Assembly (NCBI GenBank): GCA_003635315.1 | Contig: PYJD01000031.1 | Span: 157,958-221,957 of the forward strand | DNA length: 64,000 nucleotides | Source of the DNA: Candidatus Poribacteria bacterium | GTDB lineage: Bacteria > Poribacteria > WGA-4E > WGA-3G | Reading direction: 5' to 3' | Part shown: piece by piece, positions 12,035 to 59,883 of the stretch | Layout of the letters: the number at the start of each line of letters is the position of its first letter | Position numbering within the stretch: position 1 is the stretch's first letter | Made by a program: the position numbers and the translations under genes | Notes under the pieces: model-generated | The model's database searches: none | Seen by the model: only the letters and a program-made list of their open reading frames with translations | What the model was told of the DNA's origin: nothing

Positions 12035-12420
12035 ATACCACTACCCTCTTGTAGGTCGGGTTGAGGAACGAAACCCATAGGTGTCAACTTAAGAAAATCA
12101 TTCCATTTTATGAGTGTCTTCAGTCCCATAGGGACGATATGTTTATAGAAAAAATGTCAATACAACATTTTGAGTTCCGTAGGAACGGAATGTATATACC
12201 ACAACCCAATTATAAACATTTCGTTCCTACGGAACTCAAGAAAGTTCAGGATAACGGCTTGCTATAAACATATCGTCCCTACAGGACTAAAGAGGATGAC
12301 ATCAACGTCTGTCTATAAACACTCCGTCCTTACCAAATCAACACCAAATGCGCATTTGGCATTTATCGGGACTGAGGCGGCTTTCTGTATTAGAAAATCC
12401 TTAAGTTGACACCTATAGTG
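12035..12420. mobile_element. MITE-like element of family B. It has a leader-like segment, 19-bp perfect terminal inverted repeats (ATAGGTGTCAACTTAAG) and internal GTCCCnnnGGGAC-GGAATGTTTATAG hairpin units in both orientations.
   Basis: CATAGGTGTCAACTTAAG at 12067 and CTTAAGTTGACACCTATAG at 12402 are reverse complements. The interior carries five hairpin units, and the track ORFs inside are spurious. Confidence 0.65.
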
Positions 12421-17211: not shown

Positions 17212-18105
17212 ATGGCACAATACGATGAAATCGTAAAACATCTGATGGATAGGTTCGCAGGTGATTTCGCAAGCTTATCTTTTGATACACCCGATGTTGA
17301 AGTTATAGAGACACTTGACACAGAACAACAAACAGTAAAAGTACATCGTAACGACATGACATTTAAAGTGTTATGGAATAATGAAACAGTTATACTACAT
17401 ATAGAAGTACAAACCCAAGATAGTAAAGATAAACCGATGCCGCTACGTGTACTCTCGTATGCTGCTGAACTCTTACTACGTTATGAACTTCCAGTCTATT
17501 CAGTCGTACTATATCTAAGTTCAAATGCCGGACAAACCGATCCAGGTGGCTATAGTTACGGAAATGATCAGTTTGGATTACAACATAGATATCAGGTGAT
17601 TCGGTTGGTAGATTTAGAGGGTGAATCATATTTAGAATCAGCATCTGTAGGATTATTGCCATTCACACCATTAATGAGACCACCTTTAAACTTGAACACG
17701 GAAGCATGGTTGCAGAAATGTGTTGAAACAACAGAATCCGCACCTGTTGACCCACAAACGCGGAGCACACTGCTGTATGCGTTAACCACCTTGGGTAGTC
17801 TAAACTATGATCCTAATCTTTTTCAGAAACTAATATCGGAGGAAATGATGCAAGAATCTCCTTTTTACGAAATCATCATGCAGCGCGGCATTGAACGGGG
17901 CATTGTACAAGGTTCACTTCAAGTCTGCATAAAGAACATACTATCTGTTCTTACAGAACGTTTTCCGTCGAGTGATACGACACCCGTAGCAGAAATCCTT
18001 GAATCCATTCAAGACCTTGATCGTTTATCAGAGCTGCTTCGTTTAGCAGTCCAAACATCCAGCGTGGATACATTTCTACAAGAAATAGATACATCGGAAG
18101 AATAA
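17212..18105 (+). CDS. Rpn/YhgA-like PD-(D/E)xK nuclease (recombination-promoting nuclease / transposase_31 family) with DUF4351-like C-terminus
   Basis: Motifs FKVLWNN...ILHIEVQTQDSKD (hiEfQ signature) and a C-terminal helical LLRLAVQTSSVDTFLQEI region; 297 aa. Confidence 0.7.
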   Translation: MAQYDEIVKHLMDRFAGDFASLSFDTPDVEVIETLDTEQQTVKVHRNDMTFKVLWNNETVILHIEVQTQDSKDKPMPLRVLSYAAELLLRYELPVYSVVLYLSSNAGQTDPGGYSYGNDQFGLQHRYQVIRLVDLEGESYLESASVGLLPFTPLMRPPLNLNTEAWLQKCVETTESAPVDPQTRSTLLYALTTLGSLNYDPNLFQKLISEEMMQESPFYEIIMQRGIERGIVQGSLQVCIKNILSVLTERFPSSDTTPVAEILESIQDLDRLSELLRLAVQTSSVDTFLQEIDTSEE

Positions 18106-18187
18106 AAAAACACCAGATTTCCAATGGTGAGATGTTTTTCAATCACGACGAATCCGTCCCAATCCCTCTTCTCCGCGGAATCCGCGT

Positions 18188-18291
18188 AATACCATTTCCA
18201 ATTAAAAAACTCTCTTTTTGTAGCACAAACTTTCAGTTTTTGTCTTCCCTGTTTCATTCCTAACAGTCGGTAATGAGATAATCATAAATAG
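18188..18291 (+). mobile_element. MITE-A copy (terminal inverted repeat ATACCATTTCTAATT / TAGAAATGGTAT; core hairpin CACAAACT-ttc-AGTTTGTG)
   Basis: Nested inverted repeats; partial copies follow at 18296..18350 and 18430..18460. The track ORF 18009..18257 (peptide GRQKLKVCATK) is an artefact of this repeat. Confidence 0.65.
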
Positions 18292-18549
18292 AAATAGGTA
18301 TTCCTAATACCATTTCTACATGAATATGTCACTTCTTGTAGCATAAACTACCAGACCAAATGCTGATTACATATTTTTTTAATAAAATTGAAAATTAAAT
18401 GAAGAAAATAACTATATCTAACAACTAACATTACCAAAAGCTACTTTTTTAGCATAAACTTCGAGAAGGTAGGGAAGGAACGAACCCACCATCCACAGTT
18501 CCACCTTTCCAATCTTCCAATTCCGTACTTTTATGGGAAGTATATAATT

Positions 18550-18968
18550 AGAGAATAAATGATGAAAATCTATAAAAACGATCCTAAATACCAATACCCT
18601 CTTTATGTCAAAAAAACAGCTTTAATATGCAGTTTGAAAAACACAAAATCAGCAAGGAAAGAAAAACACAAAATCACACTTTTTGGAAATTCTTATAAAG
18701 TCAATTCAAAATGGAGTGAACTCAGTCTATGACAGAGGTTAGAGGGGTAATTTACACTAATTTCAATCCTACAAAATGTAGGAAAAAGTGTAACTTTTTT
18801 CACTTTTTACACACTTTTTCACCACAGGGAAAAATCAACATTTTCACGATTTATTATATGGGAATTTAGGATTAAAGGTCTGTTTTTGACCCCTATTCGT
18901 TCGTCTGGATATTAGGATTAAATGTTCAATTTACGAATATGAGTTTTAATACAATTTCTAAATGAAAA
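18550..18968 (+). repeat. ~420-bp non-coding element, copy 1. About 80-85% identical to the reverse complement of 59455..59883.
   Basis: Colinear match across the whole length (AGAGAATAAATGATGAaAAtCTATAAAAACGATCCTAAATACCA ... GGGAATTTAGGATTAAAGGTCTGTTTTTG ... TATTAGGATTAAA). Contains hairpin + AAAAGTGTAACTTTTTTCAC motif. Confidence 0.7.
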
Positions 18969-19015
18969 TGTCTCTCTTTGTAGCATAAACTGATAGTTTG
19001 TGCCACATTACGCTT
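18935..19015 (+). mobile_element. MITE-A variant copy (core CATAAACT-gat-AGTTTGTG)
   Basis: Same architecture as other MITE-A copies, with compensatory substitutions in the stem. Confidence 0.5.
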
Positions 19016-19252
19016 CAGTTCTACTGTAACTATTGTAAAAATTAAGGCAGGATATCTAAAACTGAATAGTCCTGCAAATATATTAAAAGTACTTGTCAAA
19101 ATAGAGGAATTATACAATACTATATTGTAGAATCTTTAAGAATCTCAAATGAATAATTTAAAATACAAAAATAATACATACAAAAGAACATCACATTACT
19201 TACCGAAATCGTTTAGAAAAAATATCAATCAAGCTAAACGAAGGAGAATAAA

Positions 19253-22210
19253 TTGAAAGTCTTAAAACTTATTCTATTTTTCTCATTTATCTTTTCTGTT
19301 CCAGTTTCAATAGCCTATGAATACCAGTGGATAAATAATGAAGAAATCGAAGGGGCAGACAGCGTTACAGAGGTTAAGCCTCTCCAAGTCATTTTTCTTG
19401 ATGAACCCATTGAGGTGGTAACACACAGTGCCTCTTTGCGTTTGATGCAAAAGTATTCTGTATACCTTGGCACAGAATGGAGTCCGGGGAACGCATATCG
19501 ACTGCTTAAAACTTTCGAATCCATACCCCAACTGACAAACAATCCTTATCATGTTGAACCCACAGTACCTTATTCCTTATGGAAACTGACCCGAAAACAC
19601 ATTCAGGGTGACATCGAAATAGATGTTAGAAATAGACAGACTATTGTTACTGTTTCAGAGGGTGCGTTTACCTATACTGAACCGAGATTGGCAGAGATTG
19701 AAGGTGTGGAAGGACGCTACTTTTCGAAACGACTACATCACGCAGTTGTTCGGTTCGTAACAGATGACGGTAGAGACAGACAAGCAATTGAGTACATATT
19801 GAACAAACGTTATGGGATCAGTTTAAATGTACCCGACTACACAGAATTGACGCGACACACAACAGGTGAGCACGCTGCGCGTTTCACAACCTTTAAAGAC
19901 GAAGAGGTGTTGGATCTCGTCAATATGATTGAGGAATTCCCAACTGGCATGCATAAAATTACGGGACTGAATTACATCATTCGACGTTTAGATGGAACAC
20001 CCCACCCACTTTATCCCACTGCTCCCGCAGTCGCATGGACACAGAGCGGTTACATTGAGTTCATGGAATCCGCATTTCTGGAACAAGGAGCAGACTATAT
20101 CCACCGTTTAATCCTTCATGAAAAGGCACACTTTTTGTGGGAATACCTATTTGATGATCAACTCAAACAGGATTGGATTGAGCTTGGAGGTTGGTATGAA
20201 AATCCAGACGATGTGGATGGGTGGTCTACGACAAAACAGCTTGAGTTTGTTTCCGCGTATGCACACGGCAAGAATCCTAATGAGGATATGGCAGAGAGTA
20301 TCAGTCATTACATCGTTCGACCTGACATACTCCGGTCACGCGCACCAGACAAATATCAATTCATCCAAGATCGGATTATGCACGGCACACGTTATATATC
20401 ACGCATACGCGAAGATCTAACCTTCCAGGTCTACAACCTTTATCCTGATGTCGTGTATCCAGGACGAATTATACGGGTGAATATAGATGTTAGTGGTGAA
20501 CCGGAAGCAGATAAACGTATAGTGATTGAAATAGAACTACACCAGACAGGAGATTTAGACACAGCACAAGCATCAAGTGTCAGAATATTTAGTGACAAAG
20601 GCACATACTTTGACATCTGGCTGTATCCAATAAAAAACGGTATATATACGGATACAGGACATATTCTGCGAGGTGAGGTAGTTTTATCGCGCTATGCTGC
20701 ACACGGATATTGGGGTCCAGATGCGATTACTCTCAAAGATGCTCAAGGAAATGAACGACACCAATCACAAACCGATTTTGGATGGAAACTCTATATCAAC
20801 AGTCCGTTAGCTGACACGGAGGCACCGATTTATGTAAAAAACTCTATGCGTCTTTCCTTGTCAGATGATATGGAAAATGGAAGGCCACTGCAAATATTGA
20901 CGGCTCAGTGGAAGATCATTGAGCAAAATGATATTGAATCCATTTCAGCACGAGCAAACGACGAAAGTGATGAGACTTATTCACGACATTCGTTTAACTT
21001 TGGAACATACGATAAACAGACCGGTTTAGCGACTGTTAAGCTTATTATCCCTGATTACTTCCAAACCGGGATATATTCACTGAACCATATAAGTATGAAA
21101 GATATCGCATTAAACACACGCGGCGTCTACTTTACTAAACCGCATTCCAGCATAAGGGACGAAGAAGAAATCCTTGATGAGAAACCTGCCACCATCCATA
21201 TTAAAACAACAAACCCTGATAGCAATCCCCCTATTCTTGATTTGAACTGGATTACTGTAACAGCAGAACCGACAAATCCTGATGAACCAAACGGGGAAAC
21301 ACGAGTTGATATTACCTTCAGAATTAAGGATGACATCAGTGGATATAGTAAGACATATATTGATTTACGTGATCCACATGGCGTGGTTCACACCTTTTCA
21401 CATCTTCATAGCGATTATTACAAAACCTATTTCACAGAGGATCCATTTGACTTTAAAATCTACAACAAAACGATTATTCTTCCTGTTGGTAGCGTCCCGG
21501 GTACATGGGGTATTTCTCAGATGACAGTTCAAGATAAGGCACAAAACATCCTACGCGCCGACTTCACAGAAATTGTCCGTTTTGTTGTGAATGATATGTC
21601 TGTCATATCTCAATACGACGTCAATGGTGATGGAAAGATAGACATACTGGATTTAATAATGGTAGCAAATGCATTTGGAACGACTGAGAATGATAGTGCG
21701 GATGTCAACGGTGATGGTGCTGTCAATATACAAGATTTAGTAGGAGTTGCCAGTCATATCGGTGAAGGATCTTTAGAGGCACCGACTACACACAATCTAA
21801 CTGCCAACCAAATACAAAGTTGGATCACACAAGCAACACAAGTCGATGACGGTAGTCCTGCTTTCCAGTCAGGTATTCGTGTGTTACAAGACCTCTTACT
21901 CGAACTGCAACCAGAAAAGACTGAACTGTTGCCAAATTATCCTAACCCGTTTAACCCGGAGACATGGATTCCCTATAAATTGGCAAATCCAAGTGATATA
22001 ATAATAAATATCTATGATTCGAGTGGCAGCCTTGTGCGTCAACTTGACTTGGGTCATCAGTCAACCGGTATATACCAGATTCGTAGTCGTGCTGCATATT
22101 GGGATGGTCGGAATAAGCTTGGGGAACGGGTGGCGAATGGAATCTATTTTTATCAACTGCAGACGGATAGTGTTTCACCACCACTTAGGAAAATGGTTAT
22201 TCTGAAATAA
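19253..22210 (+). CDS. Secreted multidomain zinc metalloprotease (HExxH) with dockerin-type repeats and a T9SS (Por) C-terminal sorting domain
   Basis: Signal peptide; HEKAHFLWEY (HExxH); dockerin repeats DVNGDGKIDILDLIMV and DVNGDGAVNIQDLVGV; C-terminus LLPNYPNPFNPETWIPYKL...NGIYFYQL...KMVILK typical of a T9SS sorting domain. Confidence 0.75.
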   Translation: MKVLKLILFFSFIFSVPVSIAYEYQWINNEEIEGADSVTEVKPLQVIFLDEPIEVVTHSASLRLMQKYSVYLGTEWSPGNAYRLLKTFESIPQLTNNPYHVEPTVPYSLWKLTRKHIQGDIEIDVRNRQTIVTVSEGAFTYTEPRLAEIEGVEGRYFSKRLHHAVVRFVTDDGRDRQAIEYILNKRYGISLNVPDYTELTRHTTGEHAARFTTFKDEEVLDLVNMIEEFPTGMHKITGLNYIIRRLDGTPHPLYPTAPAVAWTQSGYIEFMESAFLEQGADYIHRLILHEKAHFLWEYLFDDQLKQDWIELGGWYENPDDVDGWSTTKQLEFVSAYAHGKNPNEDMAESISHYIVRPDILRSRAPDKYQFIQDRIMHGTRYISRIREDLTFQVYNLYPDVVYPGRIIRVNIDVSGEPEADKRIVIEIELHQTGDLDTAQASSVRIFSDKGTYFDIWLYPIKNGIYTDTGHILRGEVVLSRYAAHGYWGPDAITLKDAQGNERHQSQTDFGWKLYINSPLADTEAPIYVKNSMRLSLSDDMENGRPLQILTAQWKIIEQNDIESISARANDESDETYSRHSFNFGTYDKQTGLATVKLIIPDYFQTGIYSLNHISMKDIALNTRGVYFTKPHSSIRDEEEILDEKPATIHIKTTNPDSNPPILDLNWITVTAEPTNPDEPNGETRVDITFRIKDDISGYSKTYIDLRDPHGVVHTFSHLHSDYYKTYFTEDPFDFKIYNKTIILPVGSVPGTWGISQMTVQDKAQNILRADFTEIVRFVVNDMSVISQYDVNGDGKIDILDLIMVANAFGTTENDSADVNGDGAVNIQDLVGVASHIGEGSLEAPTTHNLTANQIQSWITQATQVDDGSPAFQSGIRVLQDLLLELQPEKTELLPNYPNPFNPETWIPYKLANPSDIIINIYDSSGSLVRQLDLGHQSTGIYQIRSRAAYWDGRNKLGERVANGIYFYQLQTDSVSPPLRKMVILK

Positions 22211-22260
22211 ACTACCCAAGTAATTACACGCTTTACACCTAACCATTCAACCAACCCGGT

Positions 22261-22287
22261 AGGAGCGGTTTGGAACCGCTCCGAATA
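22261..22287 (+). terminator. Hairpin GGAGCGGTTTGGAACCGCTCC downstream of the protease gene (putative terminator; weak U-tract)
   Basis: Perfect 7-bp GC-rich stem 50 bp past the stop. Confidence 0.4.
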
Positions 22288-22331
22288 TAATATAACATGC
22301 GTATTTATGACAACTATTCATTTAGAAATGG

Positions 22332-22772
22332 TTGATATGGAGAAATCTAATGTATAAATTATTTCTACCCATTATGTTGTTGAGTATACTTATCATGGGT
22401 TGTATACCAGATTCACCATTAGATCCTGATGAAACCTCCAATCCGACTTACATTACAACACAATTTATCATGCAAGGTGCTAAAGTAGTTTCAAACGATG
22501 GAACTGACACATTTCTTGGAGAAATCACAGGAAAATATAATAGCAACTCTATATTCAACAATTATGGTATATACGGGAGTAAATATAGTGTAACGTCTAT
22601 TTGGAATCCATATAGCATATATGGAAGTAAATATAGTATATATAGTGCCTTTAATGACTACACAATTACCCCTCCACAGATAATAAAAAACAATACAAGA
22701 ATCGGTTATCTCACAACCAACAAACATTTACATGGAGGAGTAAGCCCCAACCTTCTAAAGTCACTTTTCTAA
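22332..22772 (+). CDS. Small lipoprotein with Y/S-rich repeats (hypothetical)
   Basis: Lipobox LIMGC; repeats YGIYGSKYSVTSIWNPYSIYGSKYSIYS. Confidence 0.45.
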   Translation: MIWRNLMYKLFLPIMLLSILIMGCIPDSPLDPDETSNPTYITTQFIMQGAKVVSNDGTDTFLGEITGKYNSNSIFNNYGIYGSKYSVTSIWNPYSIYGSKYSIYSAFNDYTITPPQIIKNNTRIGYLTTNKHLHGGVSPNLLKSLF

Positions 22773-22841
22773 CCGGGAACATCTATCTTCATAATAAGCA
22801 CACGTAGGGTTCCAACCTATAAGAACCCCAAAATAAAACAA

Positions 22842-22955
22842 TACCATTTCTAATTTATAAACTCTCTTTTTTGTAGCACAAACTTTCAGTTTGTGTCTTC
22901 CTTGTTTCATTTCTAACAGCCAGTAATGAGAGAAATAATAAATTTGAAATGGTAT
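22842..22955 (+). mobile_element. MITE-A copy (reference copy)
   Basis: ATACCATTTCTAATT...CTCTCTTTTTTGTAGCACAAACTTTCAGTTTGTGTCTTCC...AATGAGAG...TTTGAAATGGTAT; a degenerate second copy lies at ~23040..23110 (core CATAATCTG-tca-GATTGTG). Confidence 0.7.
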
Positions 22956-23287
22956 AATCAACCTTTCAACATACCTTACGATCCCTAAAATTCACACATA
23001 AAGTGCAGTTTCCCGATCACACGGATTTTATATATAACCTTAGTTGCCACCTATGTAGCATAATCTGTCAGATTGTGCCTAAGGTAATGTGACAAAATCA
23101 ATAGAAATGGCATCATTATATGAGTACACTAATCCTGTCTAATTAAAATATCGTCACAGATCGTATAAACTGCTAAAATAGTTTATACTATTAGGCTATC
23201 ATCTTGTATAGATAGACATTATTTAAAATGACCTATGGTTTTATTATATATTTTATATGTGGCAACTTATAATAGAAGAGGTGGAGA

Positions 23288-24427
23288 ATGAACAATAAGA
23301 GGATTATCATCATCGGTGGTGGTGTGATTGGACTTGGCATAGGGTGGCAGTTAGCAAAAGCAGGTGCAGCTGTCACCATACATGAACGAGGACAAGCCGG
23401 ACGCGGGGCATCATGGGCAGCCGGTGGGATGCTCGGTCCTATCGCTGAGGCACACATTGACGAACTTGATCTGCTGAAACTCAGTAATCAAAGTTTAGAA
23501 CGCTATCCAGAATGGGTTGATGAGTTAGAATCTGAAACAGAAATGACTATCGGTTACAGAGCAGAAGGTACGCTCATAATTGGAATTAACCCTGATGATT
23601 CATATCAACTCAAACACGCATATAACTTATATAAAGATTTAGGATTAAATGTTGAGTGGTTGAGTGGACAAGAAGCACGAAAAATTGAAGGTGCACTCTC
23701 ACCATACGTAACGGCAGCGATTCGTTGTGAAACTGACCATCAAGTCGATAACCGTCTGATGGTCCAAGCACTGGAACATGCATATCTGGGGCGAGGTGGT
23801 GTGCTCCAGCAAAACAGCAATGTGGAGAAAATTGTCATTGAAAACGGTAACGTAACTGGTATTCAAACACAAGATGGTTTTCAAGATGCGGATGTATGTA
23901 TTCTCGCTGCTGGATGCTGGTCGGGACAGATCAACGGGTTACCGGATTCTATGATTCCTCCCGTGCGTCCCGTAAAAGGGCAGATGTTAGCATTACAAAT
24001 GCGTGAAGATAATATGATTAGTAATGTCGTTCGTACCGTCAAGGCAAGGTATCCGATGCCTGTATATTTAGTACCGAGAAAAGACGGAAGACTTGTCATC
24101 GGAGCAACAACCGAGGAGTTAGGGTTTGACACAGATCTGATCGTCGGTGGTATATATGAACTCCTTCACGGTGCGTTTGAAGCTGTACCGAGCTTTTACG
24201 ATCTACCGCTAATAGAGACCTGGACAGGTTTACGTCCCGGTAGCAGTGACAATGCACCCATCCTTGGCAAAACACCGGTTGGAAATTTAATCTATGCAAC
24301 AGGTCACTATCGAAACGGCATCTTACTCACCCCCATCACAGCATACGAAATATCTAAACTGATCCTGACGGGAGAGACACCAGAAACAATAGCACCCTTC
24401 CATCTGGATCGGTTTTCAGACGAGTAG
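23288..24427 (+). CDS. thiO: FAD-dependent glycine oxidase / D-amino-acid oxidase family (ThiO-like)
   Basis: N-terminal dinucleotide-binding fold IIIIGGGVIGLGIGWQLAKAG; C-terminal GHYRNGILLTP motif; 379 aa. Confidence 0.6.
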   Translation: MNNKRIIIIGGGVIGLGIGWQLAKAGAAVTIHERGQAGRGASWAAGGMLGPIAEAHIDELDLLKLSNQSLERYPEWVDELESETEMTIGYRAEGTLIIGINPDDSYQLKHAYNLYKDLGLNVEWLSGQEARKIEGALSPYVTAAIRCETDHQVDNRLMVQALEHAYLGRGGVLQQNSNVEKIVIENGNVTGIQTQDGFQDADVCILAAGCWSGQINGLPDSMIPPVRPVKGQMLALQMREDNMISNVVRTVKARYPMPVYLVPRKDGRLVIGATTEELGFDTDLIVGGIYELLHGAFEAVPSFYDLPLIETWTGLRPGSSDNAPILGKTPVGNLIYATGHYRNGILLTPITAYEISKLILTGETPETIAPFHLDRFSDE

Positions 24428-24629
24428 CATCTTTAGAATCTACATGTTTATCCTACCGTGTACCACATTTTCACTTGAATTATCAGACCAATATGGACAA
24501 TGGTAGAACATAATGATAATTTTACCATACCGATATCAATTATACCATAGGGTTATTTAGTTTTCTAAATTTCCACTACTTTTTATTTATTCCGTAATTG
24601 TATATATTGTTATCTTATATAGGTCTTTA

Positions 24630-24980
24630 GTCCCATCGGGACGGAATGTTTATAGCAAAAGTGTATACACCATAGGGAGTTCCATCAGGACGGAATGTTT
24701 ATAGAAAAAATGCGAACCCCTATCTTGAGTTCCGACATATGCTATATGCTTATTTGACGTTGATTAGGTAGGGACGGAATGTCTATAGAAGAACGTATTC
24801 ACACAGTCTTGAGTCCCATCGGGACGGAATGTTTATAGAAAAATGCGAACCCCTATCTTGAGTTCCGTAGGAACGGAATGTTTATAAAAGAACGTATTCA
24901 CACAGTCTTGAGTCCCATCGGGACGGAATGTCTATAGAAAAATGCGAACCCTATCTTGAGTTCTGTATGAACAGCATAAT
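24630..24980 (+). repeat. Family-B tandem array. It carries about 7 units of a ~26-bp hairpin repeat (GTCCCATCGGGACGGAATGTTTATAG) separated by ~23-bp segments that themselves recur in alternation. CRISPR-like but not CRISPR.
   Basis: Stem variants GTCCC/GGGAC and GTTCC/GGAAC (compensatory). 'Spacers' AAAAATGCGAACCCCTATCTTGA and AAGAACGTATTCACACAGTCTTGA each occur 3 times. Confidence 0.7.
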
Positions 24981-25529
24981 CAAAAAACATATCGTCACGG
25001 GTGGGTATAAACTTTGAGTAAATAACAATAACGGAAGCCCCTTAAAAATATGACATTTTCATCAACTATTCATGAAATCCTACAAATCGTTGTAGGTTCT
25101 TCCTATTGAGGATCTAACAAATCATCATATAAGTCAATAAAGTATCGTAAAATATTGTTCTTGACAAATACAACCAAATATGTTTTAATTTTGATTGATG
25201 AGTTACGATGTGCCACAGTTTAGAGGGTTTTTGCATCATTATTACGTTAATTCCCTCCTAATGCTTAACAAAATTTACCACTTTTCTAAGGAAAAATAAA
25301 AACGGGGAGATTTCATAAATAGATATAGGAACGAGTGGATCACATGGCGTAGAAATAACAATTATGATTGTAATGAGGTTGCCATGGGAGCACATGTTGA
25401 CGATGTTTTGAGATCGTTAGTTAGTTCAAACAAACTTAAAAGATTAGGTAATGGATGGGATAGAGTTGTTAGTACTGAAGCAATAAACATAGAAGTACCA
25501 TCGATATTTTAGAACATGATTTCGTAAAG

Positions 25530-25651
25530 TTAAGACAAGTATTCTTTCTCAAATTCAATTGGTGTTAAATAGCCTAATGCTGAGTGAGATCGTTTATGGT
25601 TATACACTTTTTCACTAAACTGTCCAATGCGTATATGGTATCGTGATATCA
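25530..25651 (-). pseudogene. C-terminal fragment of an IS3-family transposase (integrase-core end)
   Basis: Minus-strand translation MTMMISRYHIRIGQFSEKVYNHKRSHSALGYLTPIEFEKEYLS* matches the conserved rve-domain C-terminus (YNxxRxHSALGYxTPxEF). An in-frame stop lies immediately upstream, so only a ~43-aa remnant remains. Confidence 0.6.
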
Positions 25652-25689
25652 TCATAGTCATTCAGATGGATTTCACCCCTCCTTGACAG

Positions 25690-26334
25690 AAGGTTGAAAA
25701 TGCAGAGATAACTGAAGCACCCCAACTCAAAGGTGATGTAAACGGCGATGGTATCGTCAACATACAAGATTTGGTGTTAGTCACTTCTAATCTTGGGAAA
25801 TAGGGACAAATGCTGCGGATGTGAACGGTGATGGCATCGTTAATATTCAGGATCTCGTCCTTGTTGCTGGTGCATTAGGTACAAGTGCAGCCTCACCATC
25901 TATACTTTCCCAATCATTAGAGACACTACAACTGCAGATGTCAAATTGTGGTTATCTCAAGCACAACAACTAAATCTCACGGATACTACCTCCCAGCGCA
26001 GTAGCCTGTTCTTAGAACAACTCCCTGAGACGTTAACACCGAAAGAGACAGCACTGCTACCAAACTATCCAAATCCGTTCAACCCAGAGACGTGGATACC
26101 GTATCAGTTAGCGAAGGATGCGAATGTTGCACTGCATATCTATGCTGTAAACGGCACATTGGTGAGAACATTAGCACTCGGATATCAGGCTGCGGTCGGT
26201 ATCAGAACCGTAGTCGTGCCGCGTATTGGGATGGTAAGAATGAATTCGGTGAACGCGTGGCGAGTGCAGTGTATTTCTATACACATACAGCAGGTAATTT
26301 CACTGCTACGCGTAAGATGTTGATACGGAAGTAA
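25690..26334 (+). pseudogene. Frameshifted remnant of a dockerin + T9SS C-terminal domain, copied from the 3' end of the 19253..22210 gene
   Basis: Frames contain GDVNGDGIVNIQDLVLV, ADVNGDGIVNIQDLVLVAG, then LLPNYPNPFNPETWIPYQL...HIYAVNGTLVRTLALGYQ, and in another frame RSRAAYWDGKNEFGERVASAVYFY...RKMLIRK. Confidence 0.7.
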
Positions 26335-26443
26335 ACCTTATCAACGAAACACGGAAGAGTGTAAGCTAACACCCTTCTATTAACAACCTGACTGCACAAC
26401 TACACATTGCATTCATAAATCAATAAAGGAGTTTATGTTGAAA

Positions 26444-27076
26444 ACTTTAGTTGTAAATGTAAATAATTTTGTATCAAGACCACTAATTTTGAGTTTTATT
26501 ATAGTCGTTTTAGTTATGTTCTCTAAAGCTTCTGTTTCGGTAGCTGAATTTGAGGTAGGAACACAATTCGGATTTACCCGACTTGTTCCCACAGATGAAA
26601 CTTAATCTTCAGTATCGGTTCTACAGGTACCCTCAGGAGAAATATCTGGTGTTGGTGCCTCGCCTTACCTAACTTTCTTTCCTCATAAGCAGCTTGCTGT
26701 TAGTCCTGCATTCGATTTTACACGGCTAACGACAACAACGTCTTTTACACTTTGGGGAGAAAGTGAAAAAGTAACCGTGAGTGCAAGCCAACTCTACTTA
26801 GGAAGTAAATTTCATTATTTTTTTATCGGTCATCAAGTGTCTAATCCTTATTTATTTGGAAAAGTGTCCATAACCGCTCCATTTAGTGAAAACAGTGACA
26901 GTGAAGTATTATTTCATACTGGGATTGGTCTTGGTTACCAATTGCCCATTGTCCCTGCTTATTTTCTTCGGTTGGAAGGACAGTACAACCGTTTGATAAA
27001 TGAAGACGAAAACGCTAACGGTTTTTCAGTAATGATGGGTATTGGTGTGCGGTTTGGAAACAACGAAGAAAGATAG
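26444..27076 (+). pseudogene. Probable disrupted outer-membrane beta-barrel gene (signal peptide in one frame, rest of protein in another)
   Basis: MLKTLVVNV...VLVMFSKASVSVAEFEVGTQFGFTRLVPTDET* stops at 26604. Beta-barrel-like sequence continues in a different frame to 27076 (…GIGLGYQLPIVPAYFLRLEGQYNR…GIGVRFGNNEER). Confidence 0.4.
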
Positions 27077-27344
27077 CACACTGAGAGAACACGTGGTAAC
27101 GATTTTACCACTACAGCAAAATGTTGATATAATGTAGTAGGTTGGGTCGGTTCTCCTTAACGCTCAATCCAACCTACGAAATCCACTATACCTCACCTAC
27201 AACGGAAATACGCAAAATGAATCAATACGCAAAATCTAATATAATAGCGTTATTTACAATACCTTTGTAAAATTAGGTAGCAACATAGGTTAGTATAAAT
27301 CAATATAAGGCACTATATCGGTAAGGTTCTATAATCTGTAAACC

Positions 27345-27385
27345 CAAAAACAGGTAGGTAATATATCAATTACCTACCTGTTTTT
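27345..27385. terminator. Bidirectional rho-independent terminator
   Basis: AAAAACAGGTAGGTAAT-atatca-ATTACCTACCTGTTTTT (perfect 15-bp stem flanked by A/T runs). Confidence 0.8.
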
Positions 27386-27639
27386 ATATAAAAGTTATTC
27401 AAACACATTAACAAGCCGTGTCCGGACAATCAAGTTTTCATATTTTTGCCAATATTGATAACACCAATCCGTCCATCTTAAGGTAATCCTTACAGAGAAA
27501 CATAAACATACACCCAGATAGCCAGAAACGATCTTATACATTTTTTTATCATTGTTATGTCATTGAAGATTAACTATTGGTTGGGTATAGTATGTATTTT
27601 GATTTACGCATCAATTAATACCATTACAGATATAAAATA

Positions 27640-27720
27640 TCTCTCCCTTGTAACCTAAACTGCCAGTTTGTGGCACAATCCGCTTTCTCTCTAACAACAG
27701 GTAATCGAAAAAATATAATA
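27640..27720 (+). mobile_element. MITE-A variant copy (core CCTAAACT-gcc-AGTTTGTG)
   Basis: Same spacing and flanks as other copies, with stem covariation. Confidence 0.5.
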
Positions 27721-27766
27721 AAAATTGAAGAAATATTAAAGAACAAACATCACATTTATAAATTAG

Positions 27767-27797
27767 TTGACAGAATAGTAAACATACGTTACAATAC
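27767..27797 (+). promoter_or_regulatory. Sigma-70-like promoter (TTGACA-17-TACAAT)
   Basis: TTGACAgaatagtaaacatacgtTACAAT; the nearest downstream ORF is 27910..28200. Confidence 0.45.
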
Positions 27798-27909
27798 CAG
27801 ATAGTGAATTATTTTAATACTCAAACTAATGCCAAACCAGTATGAATTAAGTATACATATACACTGTTTTACAAATATGACTTCTATCACACAAATTAAT
27901 GGACATTAA

Positions 27910-28200
27910 ATGTTAAAGAATCCATCAAGAACACTTTTTTATTTTTTTACACAAATTCGTAAATTGGCTATAAACATAGGTGGCTACTTACCTAACAGCG
28001 AATATACAAAAATTGAGGTGACAGAAAAAAGTTACGATTTCGTAACTTTTTCAAACAATAGTAATAAAGAAATTACAAACTTTCCGAAGCGGTCAAAATC
28101 ATCTAAAAATAAGAACAGCAAAACTGGTAAAAGTGTATATTGGATCTTCATCGGAAATGTAAGGAAGATACAAAATCCCACAATTTCCGAATTATTATAA
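27910..28200 (+). CDS. Hypothetical small basic protein (96 aa)
   Basis: ORF downstream of a consensus promoter; no recognisable domain and no ribosome-binding site. Confidence 0.25.
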   Translation: MLKNPSRTLFYFFTQIRKLAINIGGYLPNSEYTKIEVTEKSYDFVTFSNNSNKEITNFPKRSKSSKNKNSKTGKSVYWIFIGNVRKIQNPTISELL

Positions 28201-28477
28201 TTCTAATAAAAACACCGATGAACACAGACTGTGACAGGGCGGACAGCGGTTTTTATAATGACACACAATGTGTCAAAAAGTGTAACATTTTAAACATACT
28301 AATATATAATATATTACTATTGTTAATTAGAAAAATGGTGTAAATTACGGAGAATTACTTGGTTAAATATATAGGTATAGTGAAAAATAAAGATACCTTA
28401 AAAATAAGATTTAGGTGATATATTCCAAACTGATAATATAGGTTTTTGAGATATGTGATAGATAACAAATTACATCT

Positions 28478-28587
28478 AATACCATTTCTAATTGATGAAC
28501 TCTATTTTTTGTAGCACAAACTTTTAGTTTGTGTCTTCCCAGTTTCATTCCTAACTGCCGGTAATGGGACAATAATAAATAGAAATG
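28478..28587 (+). mobile_element. MITE-A copy
   Basis: ATACCATTTCTAATT...TGTAGCACAAACTTTTAGTTTGTGTC...AAATAGAAATGGTAT; track ORF 28411..28617 is spurious. Confidence 0.7.
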
Positions 28588-28876
28588 GTATAACAACAGA
28601 CAATAACTATAATCCAATAATATACTATTAGATAAACCAGAATCCTACTATTTTCACGCTTTCTAAACTTGCAATTATGGATAAAATAAGGTATAATAAT
28701 ACTGAAATTGTACAATAAATTAATAATATTCGAAGATATTTTTGGTTAAAATTCTACTGCTTACTCCTTACCTCAAGAGCAACTACTTCTCAACTTATAC
28801 TTATAGGATTTTAGCTTACTTGAATGATAGAAAGATATTATTAAACGCTCTCTCAGGTAAATGTATTGAGGAATAA

Positions 28877-29890
<1,014 letters not shown>

Positions 29891-51216: not shown

Positions 51217-53010
51217 TTAAGTCTCTTTTCTTTGACGCGAGGAGAGAATTCCCAATTCTTCTCGATATTTTTGAACTGTTCGTCTTGCGACAACAATTCC
51301 TTTTTCTTTTAAGGCTGCACTTACACTTTGATCACTAAGTGGTTTTGCTGGATTCTCCTTGCGTATCATCTCTCTAATTTCAGCCTTCACTTGTTTAGCA
51401 GAAACGGATTTTCCTTGTGTTGTTGGTAATTGATTACTAAAAAAGAACTTCAGAGGAAAAGTGCCGATGGGGGTCTGAACATATTTATTACTTGTCACCC
51501 TACTTACAGTTGATTCGTGAACATCAGCCATTTCTGCGATCGTTTTAAGTGTTAATGGTTTAATGCTTTCTGGACCATTCGTTAAAAATTCAGACTGAAC
51601 TTTAAAGATTGCCTCTGTAACTCTTTCAAGGGTTCGTCCACGTTGTGTAATGCTACTTAGCAAATCAGTTGCATCATTGTATTTTTTCAGTATCCAGTTC
51701 TTTGTTTCATCATCTACAGTATTATCTTCATCACGCATAAGGTTTATGTAGTGTGGATTTATCCGCAATCGAGGAAAATAATTATCCATTGTAAGTATAT
51801 AATTATGATCATCAAATTCTACGATTCTTACATCAGGCGTAATTCCCTGAATTGTTTCTGGCGAACGAATTAAATCTTTAACATTAGGATCGGTAAAATA
51901 CCTACCTGGATACGGAGATAAAGTGCCGATGAATTCCGTTACCTTCTGTATGTCTGATCTATCTAACTCCAATTCCTGTGCAATGTTTAATATTCGTCCA
52001 TTAAGCAATTCATCCAAATGATCTTCAACGATTATCTTGGCTAAATGAAATGGCAATTTAGTTTCAAGCGGCATACCACCATTGAATTTATGATGTTGTA
52101 CCTCTAAGTGCGTGATTTGTATCATCAATGTTTCTTTTAAATCTCTGTATGCAATACCGACAGGTTCAAATGTCTCTTGAATTTTAGTTAATACTGATTC
52201 AACATCCGATAGGGTGGAATTAGCACTACTGGCAATATCTTCTAAAGTGAGTTGATATAAGTTTAATTCTGTTCCTTCATCCTTTATAGTATATTTCAGT
52301 TTATTTGTTACATCCTTGATCATCCATGTATTTGGTTCTATATTATCTGTAGAATTTGACCTGTTCTTGACTGTTTCGATTTGGTATTCTATTTTATTAG
52401 TTTCTATTTCTGTATTTCTGTAATTAATTGAAGTTGTAGATAGGTTTTTATTTATTAGATTCTTAAGTTCATCAGATATGTTTTCCTGAAGCAAACAATT
52501 CTTAAATTCATAAGGAAGTGTGAACAGTTTCAGTTGTAGTTCACCATCATCATTTAGATTTCCTATTATCAGTTCTCCAATTGCCCTTTCATTATCATTT
52601 AATGGAGCGAGGTCCAGTTGTTGATATAGGAATTCATGTAATGTAATTGATTCAGCAATATCCGGTTCGGGAGAATCTAAGTCACTCTGTTCATATACGT
52701 TTTGTTGATTAATTACAGGAGTATCATCATACAGAGAGTTCCAATCTATATCTACCTCTGGATCAACTCTATTAAGGTCTACTTCTGGATTGTTCCATTC
52801 AGTTGCAGGATCATATTCTTGCTGAGATAGGAATGTTTCTTCATCCTCTTCGATATCCAGTAGAGGATTCAGTTCCAGTTCTTGCTCAATGAATTGTTGT
52901 AATTCAAGCTGTGGCATCATAAGCACCTTTATTGCTTGTTGCAACTTTGGTGTCATGACGATTTTATTTGTAAGCTGAGGAGTTTGCGTTAGTTTCGGCT
53001 GAATTTTCAT
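51217..53010 (-). CDS. rpoN: RNA polymerase sigma-54 factor (597 aa, with ~120-aa lineage-specific insertion)
   Basis: RpoN box ARRTVQKYRE, HTH region, N-terminal Q/L-rich activator-interacting region. Confidence 0.9.
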   Translation of the reverse strand: MKIQPKLTQTPQLTNKIVMTPKLQQAIKVLMMPQLELQQFIEQELELNPLLDIEEDEETFLSQQEYDPATEWNNPEVDLNRVDPEVDIDWNSLYDDTPVINQQNVYEQSDLDSPEPDIAESITLHEFLYQQLDLAPLNDNERAIGELIIGNLNDDGELQLKLFTLPYEFKNCLLQENISDELKNLINKNLSTTSINYRNTEIETNKIEYQIETVKNRSNSTDNIEPNTWMIKDVTNKLKYTIKDEGTELNLYQLTLEDIASSANSTLSDVESVLTKIQETFEPVGIAYRDLKETLMIQITHLEVQHHKFNGGMPLETKLPFHLAKIIVEDHLDELLNGRILNIAQELELDRSDIQKVTEFIGTLSPYPGRYFTDPNVKDLIRSPETIQGITPDVRIVEFDDHNYILTMDNYFPRLRINPHYINLMRDEDNTVDDETKNWILKKYNDATDLLSSITQRGRTLERVTEAIFKVQSEFLTNGPESIKPLTLKTIAEMADVHESTVSRVTSNKYVQTPIGTFPLKFFFSNQLPTTQGKSVSAKQVKAEIREMIRKENPAKPLSDQSVSAALKEKGIVVARRTVQKYREELGILSSRQRKET

Positions 53011-53237
53011 TATGAGTCACTCCGTATAGATCCACCAGTGCAAAGAGTATGAGTGATGCTAACGCCATTATAGCAATTCTTAAGCGACTATTGAGGCTAA
53101 ATTGGAGTTAATTTATAGTGAACTTTGGAATTAATAAAACACTACACAACGTGCGAGGAAGCCTCGCCCCTACGCTGGGTAGTCTTCGTCAACGTAGAAT
53201 GTCTCATTAATTATTAACTTTACTATAGTTCTCCTCT

Positions 53238-53972
53238 TTAGCATAATGAAAAGTTTTGACCGAAATAGAGTTCTCTGGCAACTTCGCTATTTAGAAGCTC
53301 CTCTGGCGTACCTGATAATGTAATCTTCCCATCAGCAATTAGATAAGCGCGATCAACAATATTGAGAGTTTCAACAGCATTATGATCGGTAATAAGTATC
53401 CCCAAATTTCTGTTTCTTAAATGTAGGATGAGTTGTTTGATGTCAGCAACTGCAATTGGATCAATCCCGGAAAGTGGTTCGTCAAGAAGAATAAAATCCG
53501 GTTGTGCTGCGAGGGCACGTGCAATTTCGGCTCTTCGACATTCACCACCAGATAGTGTATATGCTTTACGATCCAATAGGTTGGAAATACCTAATTCCTC
53601 AGTAAATTCGTATATCCTTTCTTCACGATCATTTTTCGGCATACCTCTTGCTTCCAAAATCGCTTCTATGTTCTGTCGGACAGTCAATTTCCTAAAGATA
53701 GATGTCTCTTGGGAGAGGTATCCGATCCCTAACCGTGCTCTTTTATACATTGGTAGAAATGTAATATCTCTATCACCGTATGTAATATTACCAGAATTCG
53801 GTTTAATTAATCCAACGACCATATAGAATGTCGTTGATTTTCCAGCACCATTTGGACCTAATAAACCGACAATTTCTCCTTGTTGAACTGAAAGACTCAC
53901 TTCATTTACAACGATTGGGCCACGTCGTGTATATTTTTTAATAAGATTATGTGTCTGTATTTCTGTACCCAC
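53238..53972 (-). CDS. lptB: LPS export ABC transporter ATP-binding protein LptB
   Basis: Walker A GPNGAGKST, LSGGECRR signature, 244 aa; immediately upstream of rpoN (conserved lptB-rpoN-hpf synteny). Confidence 0.85.
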   Translation of the reverse strand: MGTEIQTHNLIKKYTRRGPIVVNEVSLSVQQGEIVGLLGPNGAGKSTTFYMVVGLIKPNSGNITYGDRDITFLPMYKRARLGIGYLSQETSIFRKLTVRQNIEAILEARGMPKNDREERIYEFTEELGISNLLDRKAYTLSGGECRRAEIARALAAQPDFILLDEPLSGIDPIAVADIKQLILHLRNRNLGILITDHNAVETLNIVDRAYLIADGKITLSGTPEELLNSEVARELYFGQNFSLC

Positions 53973-54039
53973 GTTTAACTATATTACTCCATTTACCTGA
54001 TATTTATATATTGTATAAATCTAAGTTATACATTTTCTA

Positions 54040-54139
54040 TTAATTTGTATCTCATTACCGGTTGTTAGGAATGAAAAGGGAAGGCACAAACTAACAGATT
54101 ATGCTTCTACAATGAGATATTTTCAATTAGAAATGGTAT
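54040..54139 (-). mobile_element. MITE-A copy (reverse orientation) between lptA and lptB
   Basis: Reverse complement gives ATACCATTTCTAATT...TGTAGAAGCATAATCTGTTAGTTTGTGCC...GGTAATGAGAT. Confidence 0.6.
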
Positions 54140-54269
54140 TAGATAAACACATCTGGTTATCAACCTACTTAGAAAACCTTTATCATCTAATACAACTATT
54201 TCTCAATACATATAATTTGTTGTTAAGTAATCCTATATTGGATTAAAAACATTTCGATTTATTAACAGT

Positions 54270-55133
54270 TTAACCCTCTGAGGATTCATCACTAATTGAC
54301 TCATCATCCGTTTCATCTTCTTCCTCAGATTCTTCATTTTCATTATCACTTGTATCTGAATCGGAATTATCTTCGGTAGATGTATCCTGTTTCTCAGTTT
54401 CCTTAGAATTGTCTTTAGAACTCTCTTGAGTAGCATCAGATTTTTCAGACTCCGAATCATTGGAAGTAGATTCATCATCGGGTTTGTCTTTTTTATCTTC
54501 TGAGTTTTCCTCTTGAATTGGATTTGCCTGTGTGATAGAGACTTTAAATTTTACATCCCCTTCACCAGTTTGCTTCCCGGTGGTACGATTATATGTGAAT
54601 AATTTTGTTTCAAGTTTGTCTTTATTCTGTGTAACGATCACCTTATCTTTTAAGACAATAATATTTGTAAGATTATTCATAATAGCATGTTCACATGTAG
54701 CAAACATATCCTGATCTCGTATCTCCACATTTCCTTCAGCAATGATTTCAACAGTTTCCCCAGTTTCAGTATCACTTTTGAGTGTAATTTTATCAGCATT
54801 TAGAAATCCTATCTCAACGTCCTCTTCATTCTTACGAACAGTTCTTGCATTACCGATGAGGATTGTGATCCCATTTTTTTGATCCCTTTCCATTCTATCA
54901 GATGTACCAGTAATTACTTCTTTAGTAGGTTCAGACTGATTATCATTGTCATCAGATGTAGGTTTGACAGTTTCTTCCTGATTCTTATCAGGAATAGGTG
55001 TTTCCTCAGCCTCAACAGGAATAGACAATATACAGATCGAAGCCAGAATAATTGCAATCTTTATATATACGAGACTTATTGCATTTGAAATTGTTTCTAT
55101 ATTTAATAATGGTTTAGACTTACTGCTTTTCAT
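54270..55133 (-). CDS. lptA: LptA-like periplasmic LPS transport protein (OstA-like fold) with ~100-aa acidic (D/E/S-rich) C-terminal tail
   Basis: Signal/anchor segment; beta-jellyroll-like region; positioned between lptC and lptB. Confidence 0.5.
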   Translation of the reverse strand: MKSSKSKPLLNIETISNAISLVYIKIAIILASICILSIPVEAEETPIPDKNQEETVKPTSDDNDNQSEPTKEVITGTSDRMERDQKNGITILIGNARTVRKNEEDVEIGFLNADKITLKSDTETGETVEIIAEGNVEIRDQDMFATCEHAIMNNLTNIIVLKDKVIVTQNKDKLETKLFTYNRTTGKQTGEGDVKFKVSITQANPIQEENSEDKKDKPDDESTSNDSESEKSDATQESSKDNSKETEKQDTSTEDNSDSDTSDNENEESEEEDETDDESISDESSEG

Positions 55134-58257: not shown

Positions 58258-58322
58258 TTTAAATGAGGATGTTTCATAATTGTAGAGCCATAGGCGTAAA
58301 TTAGCTCCTTTCCCAAACCTGG

Positions 58323-58680
58323 TAGAGTTGGTTTGGAACCGAATGGAACTCCTTATGGTGTATACACCTTTGCTATAAACATTCCGTCCCTACGAGACTC
58401 CTTATGGTGTTTACACCTTTGCTATAAACATTCCGTCCCTATGGAACTCACTATGGTGTTTACACCTTTGCTATAAACATTCCGTCCCTACGGGACTCAC
58501 TATGGTGTTTACACCTTTGCTATAAACATTCCGTCCCTACGGGACTCCTTATGGTGTATACACTTTTGCTATAAACATATCGTCCCAATGGGACTAAAGA
58601 CATCAATATCAGACAACTATAAACCACTAAGTTGACACTTATGGGGTTTCGTTCCTCAACCCAACCTACAAGAGGTGCTG
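58323..58680 (-). repeat. Family-B tandem array: 6 units of 49 bp (27-bp hairpin repeat + 22-bp palindromic GGTGTATACACC-containing segment) ending in the family-B leader/terminal-inverted-repeat segment
   Basis: Plus strand reads (CTATAAACATTCCGTCCCTACGGGACT + CCTTATGGTGTATACACCTTTG) x~5, then ...CTAAGTTGACACTTATGGGGTTTCGTTCCTCAACCCAACCTACAAGAGG. The 22-bp segments are near-identical, so they are not CRISPR spacers. Confidence 0.7.
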
Positions 58681-59454
58681 CCATATACCTTTCGTCTCTC
58701 CGTGGATTTGACTCATCCAACTTGAGAGATGCAGTATTAATTACTATAACGTTAATTTATATTGGATATCAATCTCCTTTCAGAAGTTTCGATTCATCAA
58801 TTTAGAATTTGTCTAAAAACGGGAAAATGTTACACTTTTTCCTACATTCTGTAGGATTTTTTTTCGGTGAAATTATGGCTTTTAGACCAGTGCTGTACTG
58901 GGTTCAGCACCATCAATTTAGAGGAAAGCACAATTATGTATTTTTTCATTTTTGTGTTATTTTTCTGATTTCTGTTTTTTGTGTAAAATTATCACATATG
59001 TTAATATTTCGTTGATAATTATGAGTTGTTAGTTTATAGTTATCAATTAGCGATTGTTGGTTGTCAGATAAAGGAATATCTGCCCAAGGAATTACTGTAT
59101 ATCTCATGGTCTTTTTTTGAGATATTTCTATATATTTTCTGATCCAGAATGAGCTGAATTTAATTGAGAAAGTTACGATACTGTAACTTTTTTCATGTAT
59201 ATCTTTCATTTTGAAATAGTATAATCCTTGATTTTAGTTTTTCAAGTTTTTCAAGTCGGTTTTTAAAATCTCCCAATTTGGAGTGTCTTTCAGTAATTCT
59301 GGCACTATGCTCTTAAAGGAAATCATTTACAGTGCGAATGAATTGACTTTATATGGTTCGTTATTGTTTATAGATGTTGTACCGATTCTAAGAATGATGT
59401 TGCATAACAAGCTAATTTGGATATCATCTCATACTGTCTAACCTAAAGGTTATG

Positions 59455-59883
59455 CTAAAATAAAGAAACATATTCATTTAGAAATAGTATTAGAACTCAT
59501 AGTCGAAAATTACACTTTTAATCCTAATATACAGACAACGTAATAAGGTGCAAAAACAGACCTTTAATCCTAAATTCCCCATTGAAAAATTGTGAAAATG
59601 TTGAATTTTTCAATTCGCTGAAAAAGTGAAAAAAGTTACACCTTTTGACACATTCTGTGTCATTGAAATTGGTGTAAATAACCCCTCTAAGCTCTTTCAT
59701 AGACTGACTTTACTCCACTTTGAATTAACTTTTTAAGAATTTGTAAAAAGTGTGATTTTGTGTTTTTGTTGTCCATGCTAATTTTGACAATTTCAACATG
59801 GGTATTATAGTTGATTTTTCGACATAAATATAGTTGTGGTATTTAGGATCGTTTTTATAGGTTGTCATCATTTATTCTCTTAT
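59455..59883 (-). repeat. ~420-bp non-coding element, copy 2 (inverted relative to 18550..18968)
   Basis: See copy 1. The adjacent 59400..59455 carries a MITE-A-like core (TAGCATAACCtttaGGTTAGAC). Confidence 0.7.

Follow-up and report, generated by a model that had tools for sequence, protein, structure and literature searches.

Several described repeats share parts of the architecture reported here. Correia elements of Neisseria and enterobacterial ERIC-type miniature inverted-repeat transposable elements (MITEs) are 100–150 bp long with inverted ends, are often co-transcribed, and can supply promoter-like hexamers and RNA hairpins. Correia elements make a TA duplication and have an IHF site; they contain no internal GTAG palindrome or tandem hairpin arrays. 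Target duplications of 3 bp (TNA/TWA) are made by IS5-family (IS1031/ISL2-type) and PIF/Harbinger transposases, and elements of the IS200/IS605 type have no terminal inverted repeats (TIRs) and no target duplication; palindromic elements derived from them would have a hairpin at each end and share their ends with a TnpA/TnpB element. Among repetitive extragenic palindromes (REPs), the GTAG super-family is defined by an unpaired GTAG beside a short-looped stem of 6–13 bp (Di Nocera et al. 2013, PMC3733652). Its sub-families show complementary stem changes and frequent G.T pairs, and the GTAG-15 repeats of Anabaena variabilis are always enclosed in a longer inverted repeat (PMC3733652). In Escherichia coli, REPs form clusters of GTAG-tagged palindromes with regular linkers, the bacterial interspersed mosaic elements (BIMEs; PMC3333891, PMC2817692), and are known insertion-sequence (IS) targets (PMC1525189). 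The ISs described as targeting REPs belong to IS3, IS110, IS4, IS256 and IS5, not IS630. Here we analyze MITE-A, a short dispersed repeat in a 64-kb stretch of a Candidatus Poribacteria genome (contig PYJD01000031.1, positions 157,958 to 221,957; hereafter the window).

MITE-A is very likely a Poribacteria MITE family, with TIRs and a TNA target duplication, that carries a REP-type palindrome and is probably mobilized in trans. It is a new MITE/REP family and reveals no new RNA or mechanism. Its less common features are the target-duplicated MITE shell round a GTAG palindrome and the head-to-tail hairpin arrays.

To collect copies, a single genome from each GTDB species was searched for the pattern ATACCATTTC-N17-24-GTAGCAYAAWCT, which should match about 0.5 times by chance. 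The scan placed MITE-A at at least 109 loci in at least 34 species-level Poribacteria genome assemblies. Among the matches listed, all came from metagenome-assembled genomes (MAGs) of Candidatus Poribacteria or from MAGs of one study. JGI metagenomes contained 17 contigs with MITE-A, viral contigs gave no matches, and a literature search found no mention of such repeats in Poribacteria. Loci outside the window are labeled L plus a number, and about 0.9 Mb of locus sequence was examined. Loci L078, L083, L084 and L101 were considered as orthologous sites in four species; they proved to be paralogous copies within one genome, and so are uninformative on long-term retention.

The anatomy was taken from an alignment of 70 distinct full copies, which also underlies the consensus, pairing and covariation values below. 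MITE-A is non-coding and 103–125 bp long. The left end has the consensus T-W-A followed by TACCATTTCTAAWTGAAAATGTCTC; the right part is variable, with at least four subfamilies, and closes with TAATGAGAC-N-ATAGAAATGGTA followed by T-W-A. The copies are bounded by an inverted repeat, TACCATTTCTAAWTGA... / ...TCAWTTAGAAATGGTA, extended by imperfect subterminal TGTCTC / GAGACA. An earlier note, made from the letters of the window, had described three nested inverted repeats. Its outer repeat is borne out: the terminal 12 bases (TACCATTTCTAA / TTAGAAATGGTA) are paired in 94.7% of cells, and this outer ‘stem’ is a TIR. Its middle pair (GTCTC/GAGAC) is weak (paired in 75% of cells) and can best be taken for an imperfect, subterminal continuation of the TIRs.

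The target-site duplication was examined by comparing the three bases before TACC with the three after GGTA. They were identical in 64 of 82 complete elements (TAA/TAA 33, TTA/TTA 26, TCA/TCA 3, TGA/TGA 1, GAA/GAA 1). Shuffling left against right flanks 10,000 times gave a mean of 32.4 identical pairs (s.d. 4.1, maximum 48). A 3-bp TNA duplication, mostly TAA or TTA, is thus statistically clear. Rare variant flanks co-occur, which excludes both a fixed end sequence and a plain TA duplication.

Insertions are also polymorphic between related species. Locus L003 carries the element where L090 has TTTTAACTAAAT. In the window, the spacer between an lptA-like gene (54270-55133) and lptB (53238-53972) is 297 nt long and holds the copy at 54026..54141; in five relatives it is 0–82 nt long, with no match to any MITE-A module. 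These relatives have LptB proteins 83–91% identical to that of the window and keep the order lptC-lptA-lptB-rpoN; no recorded protein exceeds 92% identity to the LptB of the window, the best matches being in Poribacteria. In the window this gene stretch lies at 51217-55791 on the minus strand, where by gene order a 597-aa open reading frame (ORF; 51217-53010) occupies the rpoN position. With TIRs, a 3-bp TNA duplication and empty sites in relatives, the label MITE has firmer grounds than when it was first given. Separately, a MITE-A copy at L075:7100-7125 is inserted at TTA and directly preceded by 12 nt from another left end (TTATACCATTTCTAC-TTA-TACCATTTCTAATTG...), which suggests that it landed inside an older copy.

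The central palindrome is maintained and looks like a GTAG-tagged REP-type palindrome. Its consensus is TT-GTAG-CAYAAACT-(3-5 nt)-AGTTTGTG-C, with an unpaired GTAG (kept in >90% of hairpins), a stem of 8–9 bp and a loop of 3–5 nt. The inner six pairs are paired in 99% of cells and the outer three in 91–96%, in agreement with the central hairpin first proposed. The hairpin also occurs without transposon ends, as solo units and as inverted pairs (e.g. L039:4100-4160). Sister MITEs that share the terminal repeat and duplication of MITE-A have other GTAG palindromes ~31–45 nt from the end, for example GTAG-CCGCGCAAT (L107:1393-1520) and GTAG-GTCGGGTAGAGG...ACCCGAC (L107:1548-1695, L019:3326-3865). 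Head-to-tail repetition of the hairpin unit, 2–17 times with a period of 30–37 bp, occurs in 20 of ~95 complete elements. Linkers are identical within an array, nearly all arrays come from one long-read genome (CAXXLX01), and none of the window copies is expanded; the arrays look like lineage-specific slippage. Overall, hairpins are mostly single units inside MITEs or head-to-tail arrays, with few inverted pairs, unlike the inverted dimers or alternating clusters (BIMEs) typical of REPs. As a side observation, AAGTTGC(C/T)AC lies 3–4 nt 5' of GTAG hairpins that have no MITE-A left end (window 23040-23056, L031:4588, L039:4100, L106:1098, L079:3086 and L112), and may be the end of another element family.

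A profile hidden Markov model (HMM) built from the four best window copies, whose own E-values are therefore circular, recovered nine copies in the window: four full, one diverged full and four lower-scoring. This equals the minimum of nine full or partial copies claimed earlier. Repeat detection groups them as families D4, D9, D10, D12 and D19. The copies, and one half-element of a related family, are as follows.

18187..18303 (HMM 18182-18302), + strand: full copy, E 2e-35; TAA at 18187-18189, body TACC...GGTA at 18190-18300, GTAG hairpin at ~18219-18243, slightly degenerate right end (GAAATAGGTA) and right flank TTC.
18305..18354 (HMM 18303-18354), + strand: left end and hairpin 5' arm, E 1e-5; TAA and TACCATTTCTAC..., then the arm GTAGCATAAACT, then foreign sequence.
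18947..19022, + strand: left end and complete hairpin (GTAGCATAAACTGATAGTTTGTGCC), E 4e-10; right part decayed and extending to ~19050; inner copy, on the right side of a composite.
22258..22335, + strand: half-element of a related family (repeat family D20); hairpin GTAG-GAGCGGTT-TGG-AACCGCTC, then the terminal repeat ...CATTTAGAAATGGTT; directly 5' of ORF 22332-22772.
22840..22957 (HMM 22837-22954), + strand: full copy, E 6e-33; body 22843-22954, hairpin GCACAAACT-TTC-AGTTTGTGT at 22876-22896, flanks CAA / TAA.
23053..23114, + strand: hairpin and right end, E 1e-5; compensated variant stem GTAGCATAATCTGTCAGATTGTGCC, right end AATAGAAATGGCA, intervening region deleted and left end absent; preceded by AGTTGCCAC, a motif also found 5' of solo hairpins elsewhere.
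27616..27726 (HMM 27613-27726), + strand: diverged full copy, E 9e-10; TAATACCATTACAG..., hairpin CCTAAACTGCCAGTTTGTGG.
28477..28593 (HMM 28473-28591), + strand: full copy, E 5e-37; perfect duplication (TAA 28477-28479, body 28480-28590, TAA 28591-28593); the glyceraldehyde-3-phosphate dehydrogenase gene (28886-29890) lies 295 nt downstream.
54026..54141 (HMM 54146-54028), - strand: full copy, E 2e-32; TTA...TTA duplication (+ strand coordinates), body 54029-54138, uncompensated stem change (CATAATCT / AGTTTGTG).
59384..59491 (HMM 59493-59440), - strand: complete diverged copy, E 1e-4; variant hairpin CATAACCT-TT-AGGTTA, right part of subfamily-D type.

The last of these had been listed at 59400-59455; it is a complete diverged element. 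A ~0.8-kb composite has the pieces at 18305-18354 and 18947-19022 as its ends. Its homologue, L025:6821-7880, is a unit of 1,060 bp with MITE-A ends and TAA duplications at its boundaries. Three reverse-strand ORFs (22761-22961, 28411-28617 and 18009-18257) overlie copies and encode the peptide GRHKLKVCATK or GRQKLKVCATK. They are repeat artefacts, as had been supposed.

Seven of the nine window copies lie within 18–29 kb, a stretch that also holds gene remnants and other repeats. By its Pfam content the window is ordinary chromosome (a Type ISP restriction enzyme, glyceraldehyde-3-phosphate dehydrogenase, an FAD oxidoreductase, LptA/LptB, a MatE transporter and a dockerin/T9SS-tail protein), and no tRNA genes were found in it. 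Other repeats were noted in passing. A ~0.45–0.5-kb repeat, 83–87% identical between copies (window 18466-18988 on the plus strand and 59431-59886 on the minus strand, L025:7259-7798, L022:1865-2123), always adjoins a MITE-A left end; the copy at 59384..59491 stands beside one. In L025 it lies inside the 1,060-bp unit and contains a short conserved ORF (57 aa, MMTIYKNDPKY...) and no transposase. The ~4.5 kb at 24427-28886 have no convincing gene and contain repeat arrays and two MITE-A copies; this looks like a decaying, repeat-accumulating region. Its dockerin-like fragment (25731-26323) is a paralogue of the 985-aa dockerin/FlgD-Ig/T9SS-tail protein at 19253-22210. A second repeat family forms tandem arrays with a 49–50 nt period in both orientations (12105-12293, 24585-24991 and 58296-58600), built round the palindromes GTCCC-ATC-GGGAC and GTTCC-GTA-GGAAC (core ...GGGACGGAATGTTTATAGAAAAA); the program TRF reports 5.1 copies at 91% identity at 58348-58595. 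Finally, a tandem repeat with a 94-nt unit (1.9 copies, 79% identity) occupies 60186-60428, and the motif TGTCTGAATCGCGGAATACGCGGATGACA recurs four times inside it.

The family behavior described above could be explained as follows. A DDE transposase supplied in trans would make 3-nt staggered cuts at TNA and, by analogy with IS5 (IS1031/ISL2-type) and PIF/Harbinger, would bind double-stranded ends. For that reason the outer ‘stems’ would be sequence-conserved without a wobble bias. Hairpin arrays probably expand by replication slippage. As in other REP families, the GTAG strand would be the one on which palindromy is preserved; the hairpin would either be recognized by a protein or play a part when the DNA is single-stranded or when read-through transcription copies it into RNA. 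Any influence on neighboring genes, such as a promoter-like TTGAAA-17-CATAAT or a hairpin in an operon mRNA, would be incidental to insertion.

Some observations weigh against this explanation. No autonomous IS with MITE-A ends was found among TIR pairs 0.6–6 kb apart in the ~0.9 Mb of loci, and for lack of one the transposase family is assigned from the duplication alone. A perfect duplication is missing in 18 of the 82 complete elements. The collection pattern requires the left end and the hairpin 5' arm, which biases the counts of architecture and variation. Neutral transposition alone does not explain the orientation bias (40 elements with their genes against 19; 9/9 in the window) or the excess of G.T pairs in the hairpin. 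These two features leave room for a strand-specific role.

Candidate parents were rejected. Long-range TIR pairs in the loci are neighboring MITEs or composites; the ends of an IS630-family element in L045, and of relatives 62% identical to it, are not those of MITE-A (TGAAGATTAA...); and an IS982-like gene beside the L075 copy has no visible MITE-A end. The IS630-family element is ~1.24 kb long, with a 384-aa DDE_3 transposase and ends TGAAGATTAAnnnAnTAATTCGGTAAT (L045:1502-2739), and it or its derivatives also occur at L078:4877-7348 and in L110-L113. There are 61 matches to an end-like pattern, ~50 of them bona fide. For the element and its short derivatives, the insertion site is nearly always a loop, either of a GTAG hairpin or of a GTCCC/GGGAC palindrome (at least 36 of ~50 ends, judged by eye in loci pre-selected for MITE-A).

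Whether the hairpin is more than a passenger is a separate matter. Several MITE families with one terminal repeat carry different GTAG palindromes ~31–45 nt inside, which suggests a requirement, by the transposase or some host factor, for a hairpin on the GTAG strand. We nevertheless think it unlikely that the GTAG hairpin is a required module of a hybrid REP–MITE system. If it were, REP-type palindromes in Poribacteria would travel by cut-and-paste of the DDE type, in place of or in addition to REP-associated tyrosine transposases (RAYTs), and the same hairpin loops would be preferred landing sites for the IS630-family element.

Alternatively, the GTAG hairpin itself could be the mobile unit, a true REP spread by a RAYT, with the TIR-bounded sequence as a preferred palindromic landing site, as proposed for the Anabaena GTAG-15 repeats (PMC3733652). 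The GTAG tag, 8–9 bp stem and short loop fit the definition of the super-family (PMC3733652), and solo hairpins, inverted pairs and arrays exist. Different GTAG hairpins at a similar distance (~31–45 nt) from the same terminal repeat are also in keeping with it, and the G.T bias points to a single-stranded substrate. Against it, the duplications flank the whole TIR-bounded unit and not the hairpin, the whole unit is absent at the L003/L090 empty site, and the identical linkers within arrays point to local slippage, not repeated insertion. A phmmer search with YafM and IS200 TnpA queries, a weak test, found no RAYT among the ORFs of the window and of the at least 109 loci (0.9 Mb, <1% of the genomes). 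The sole Y1 transposase matched was an IS605-like TnpA in L109, whose hairpin is unrelated to MITE-A. We regard this alternative as distinctly improbable.

The earlier note favored selection on RNA secondary structure, with the element as a possible small RNA (sRNA). More broadly, the element or its hairpin could be a functional structured RNA, an sRNA or a cis-acting mRNA element, with the transposon-like ends secondary. The stem variants it quoted are as described: CATAAACT/AGTTTGTG has a G.T wobble, and two stems in the window are compensated, CATAATCTG/CAGATTGTG (23053) and CATAACCT/AGGTTA (59440). Yet window position 54105 carries the same A-to-T change uncompensated, as do L039:4159 and a CACATACT subfamily other uncompensated variants. 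Compensated stems occur elsewhere too: CACAATCT/AGATTGTG in L065, L039 and L106 as well as at window 23053, CATAACCT/AGGTTG in L041 (where window 59440 has AGGTTA), and CGCAAACT/AGTTTGCG in L037 and L016. They are of at least three kinds in different genomes (A:T to T:A, C:G and G:C). In the hairpin, G.T outnumbers A.C by 47 to 2, compared with 43 to 42 in the outer repeats. The compensated variants and the G.T excess agree with a hairpin being read from its GTAG strand, in DNA or in RNA form, within the limits that founder effects and the search pattern set on such inference.

The covariation check that the earlier note proposed does not favor a structured RNA. With the three nested helices imposed, the covariation score was 0.084, compared with 0.082 ± 0.004 in shuffles, and was reached by 126 of 500 of them. 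Paired cells made up 92% of the observed alignment and 91.5% of the shuffled controls; pairs changed on both sides numbered 5 and 4.4, respectively. Of the three helices, RNAalifold retained the central hairpin alone and gave a covariation term of only -0.18 kcal/mol. The pairing is explained by sequence conservation, since covariation is at the shuffle level; the collection pattern fixed most of the hairpin 5' arm, so the test is weak for that arm. Single copies do fold well (z -4.7 to -6.2 relative to shuffles), and the reverse strand folds about equally in two of the three copies tested and somewhat worse in the third. Rfam gave no matches in the 64-kb window at the gathering score, and at a permissive threshold over 18000-29000 only one chance-level miRNA match (E 0.56).

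The position of copies relative to genes speaks on both sides. All nine window copies are co-oriented with neighboring genes. Across the loci, with a gene map of simple longest ORFs, 40 elements in co-directional spacers run with the genes and 19 against them (p = 0.009), so the 9/9 in the window overstates a modest 2:1 bias. Thus one third of these copies is antisense to its neighbors. A further 19 elements lie between convergent and 20 between divergent genes, and there is no preference for a type of intergenic region, occupied and unoccupied spacers showing the same mix (p = 0.37). Copies are too sparse on five long contigs to separate replication bias from transcription bias. One copy, at 54026..54141, lies in sense orientation inside the lptC-lptA-lptB-rpoN operon. 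With the insertions polymorphic between species and target-duplicated, and uncompensated stems persisting, the evidence for an independent structured RNA is weak and we hold this reading to be very unlikely.

Other functional assignments were tried and rejected. For a MITE-A promoter (TTGAAA-17-CATAAA, from the left end to the hairpin arm), the consensus lacks the T at position 6 of the -10 element: the family has CATAAA or CACAAA there. Promoter-like matches were as many as expected from shuffles, and TTGAAA is absent from the other subfamilies. The only copy flagged by the promoter scan was the one at 54026..54141, where TTGAAA-17-CATAAT faces lptB, possibly an incidental effect of one insertion. 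As a terminator, one copy was weakly flagged, and the stem is AT-rich with no U-tract. For integron attC sites, the ends lack the GTTRRRY/RYYYAAC core.

An IS200/IS605-derived palindrome-associated element mobilized as single-stranded DNA by TnpA, the other suggestion of the earlier note, would fit the strand-specific wobble bias of the conserved subterminal hairpin and could draw on IS605-type TnpA/TnpB genes present in Poribacteria (L109), but MITE-A has the terminal repeats and target duplications that such elements lack and the L109 hairpin differs (CCCACTGCTTTAGCTGTGGG), which makes it hardly credible. The IS605-type element itself, in a Poribacteria genome, lies at L109:1659-3324 on the minus strand and encodes a 137-aa TnpA and a 429-aa TnpB; its upstream hairpin is unrelated to the GTAGCAYAAACT hairpins of MITE-A.

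Read as a MITE family carrying a REP-type palindrome, MITE-A gives the Poribacteria, uncultivated sponge symbionts, a phylum-wide repeat with defined ends, duplication and hairpin. It aids annotation, as the spurious GRHKLKVCATK ORFs can be removed, and it explains assembly breaks. Insertion polymorphisms and variable hairpin arrays can serve as strain markers. REP-like GTAG palindromes are extended beyond the catalogued phyla and appear in a target-duplicated unit, which bears on how REPs spread.

MITE-A shares with the GTAG-REP super-family the GTAG tag, short-loop stem, stem co-changes, G.T pairs, extragenic location and high copy number. It differs in that its hairpins are single or head-to-tail, an arrangement reported as absent or rare (PMC3733652), that the stem is AT-rich, that no RAYT was found in the window or the 0.9 Mb of loci, and that Poribacteria are outside the eight phyla listed in PMC3733652. 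The closest published parallel is Anabaena GTAG-15 in its longer palindrome; in MITE-A, the enclosing repeat acts like the end of a transposon and is flanked by a 3-bp duplication. BIMEs of E. coli, in contrast, alternate REP orientation and have no transposon ends or duplications. The use of E. coli REPs as IS targets is matched by the IS630-family insertions in Poribacteria hairpin loops, although the IS family differs. Correia and ERIC elements are similar in size and inverted ends and share no sequence similarity with MITE-A. On the transposon side, MITEs of the IS5 type (IS1031/ISL2) or PIF/Harbinger ‘Tourist’-like MITEs are likewise small and non-coding, with TIRs, a 3-bp TNA/TWA duplication, intergenic dispersal and insertion polymorphism. 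Compared with the IS5 family, to which the duplication alone assigns it, MITE-A has ends that begin with TACC and not the typical GG/GA.

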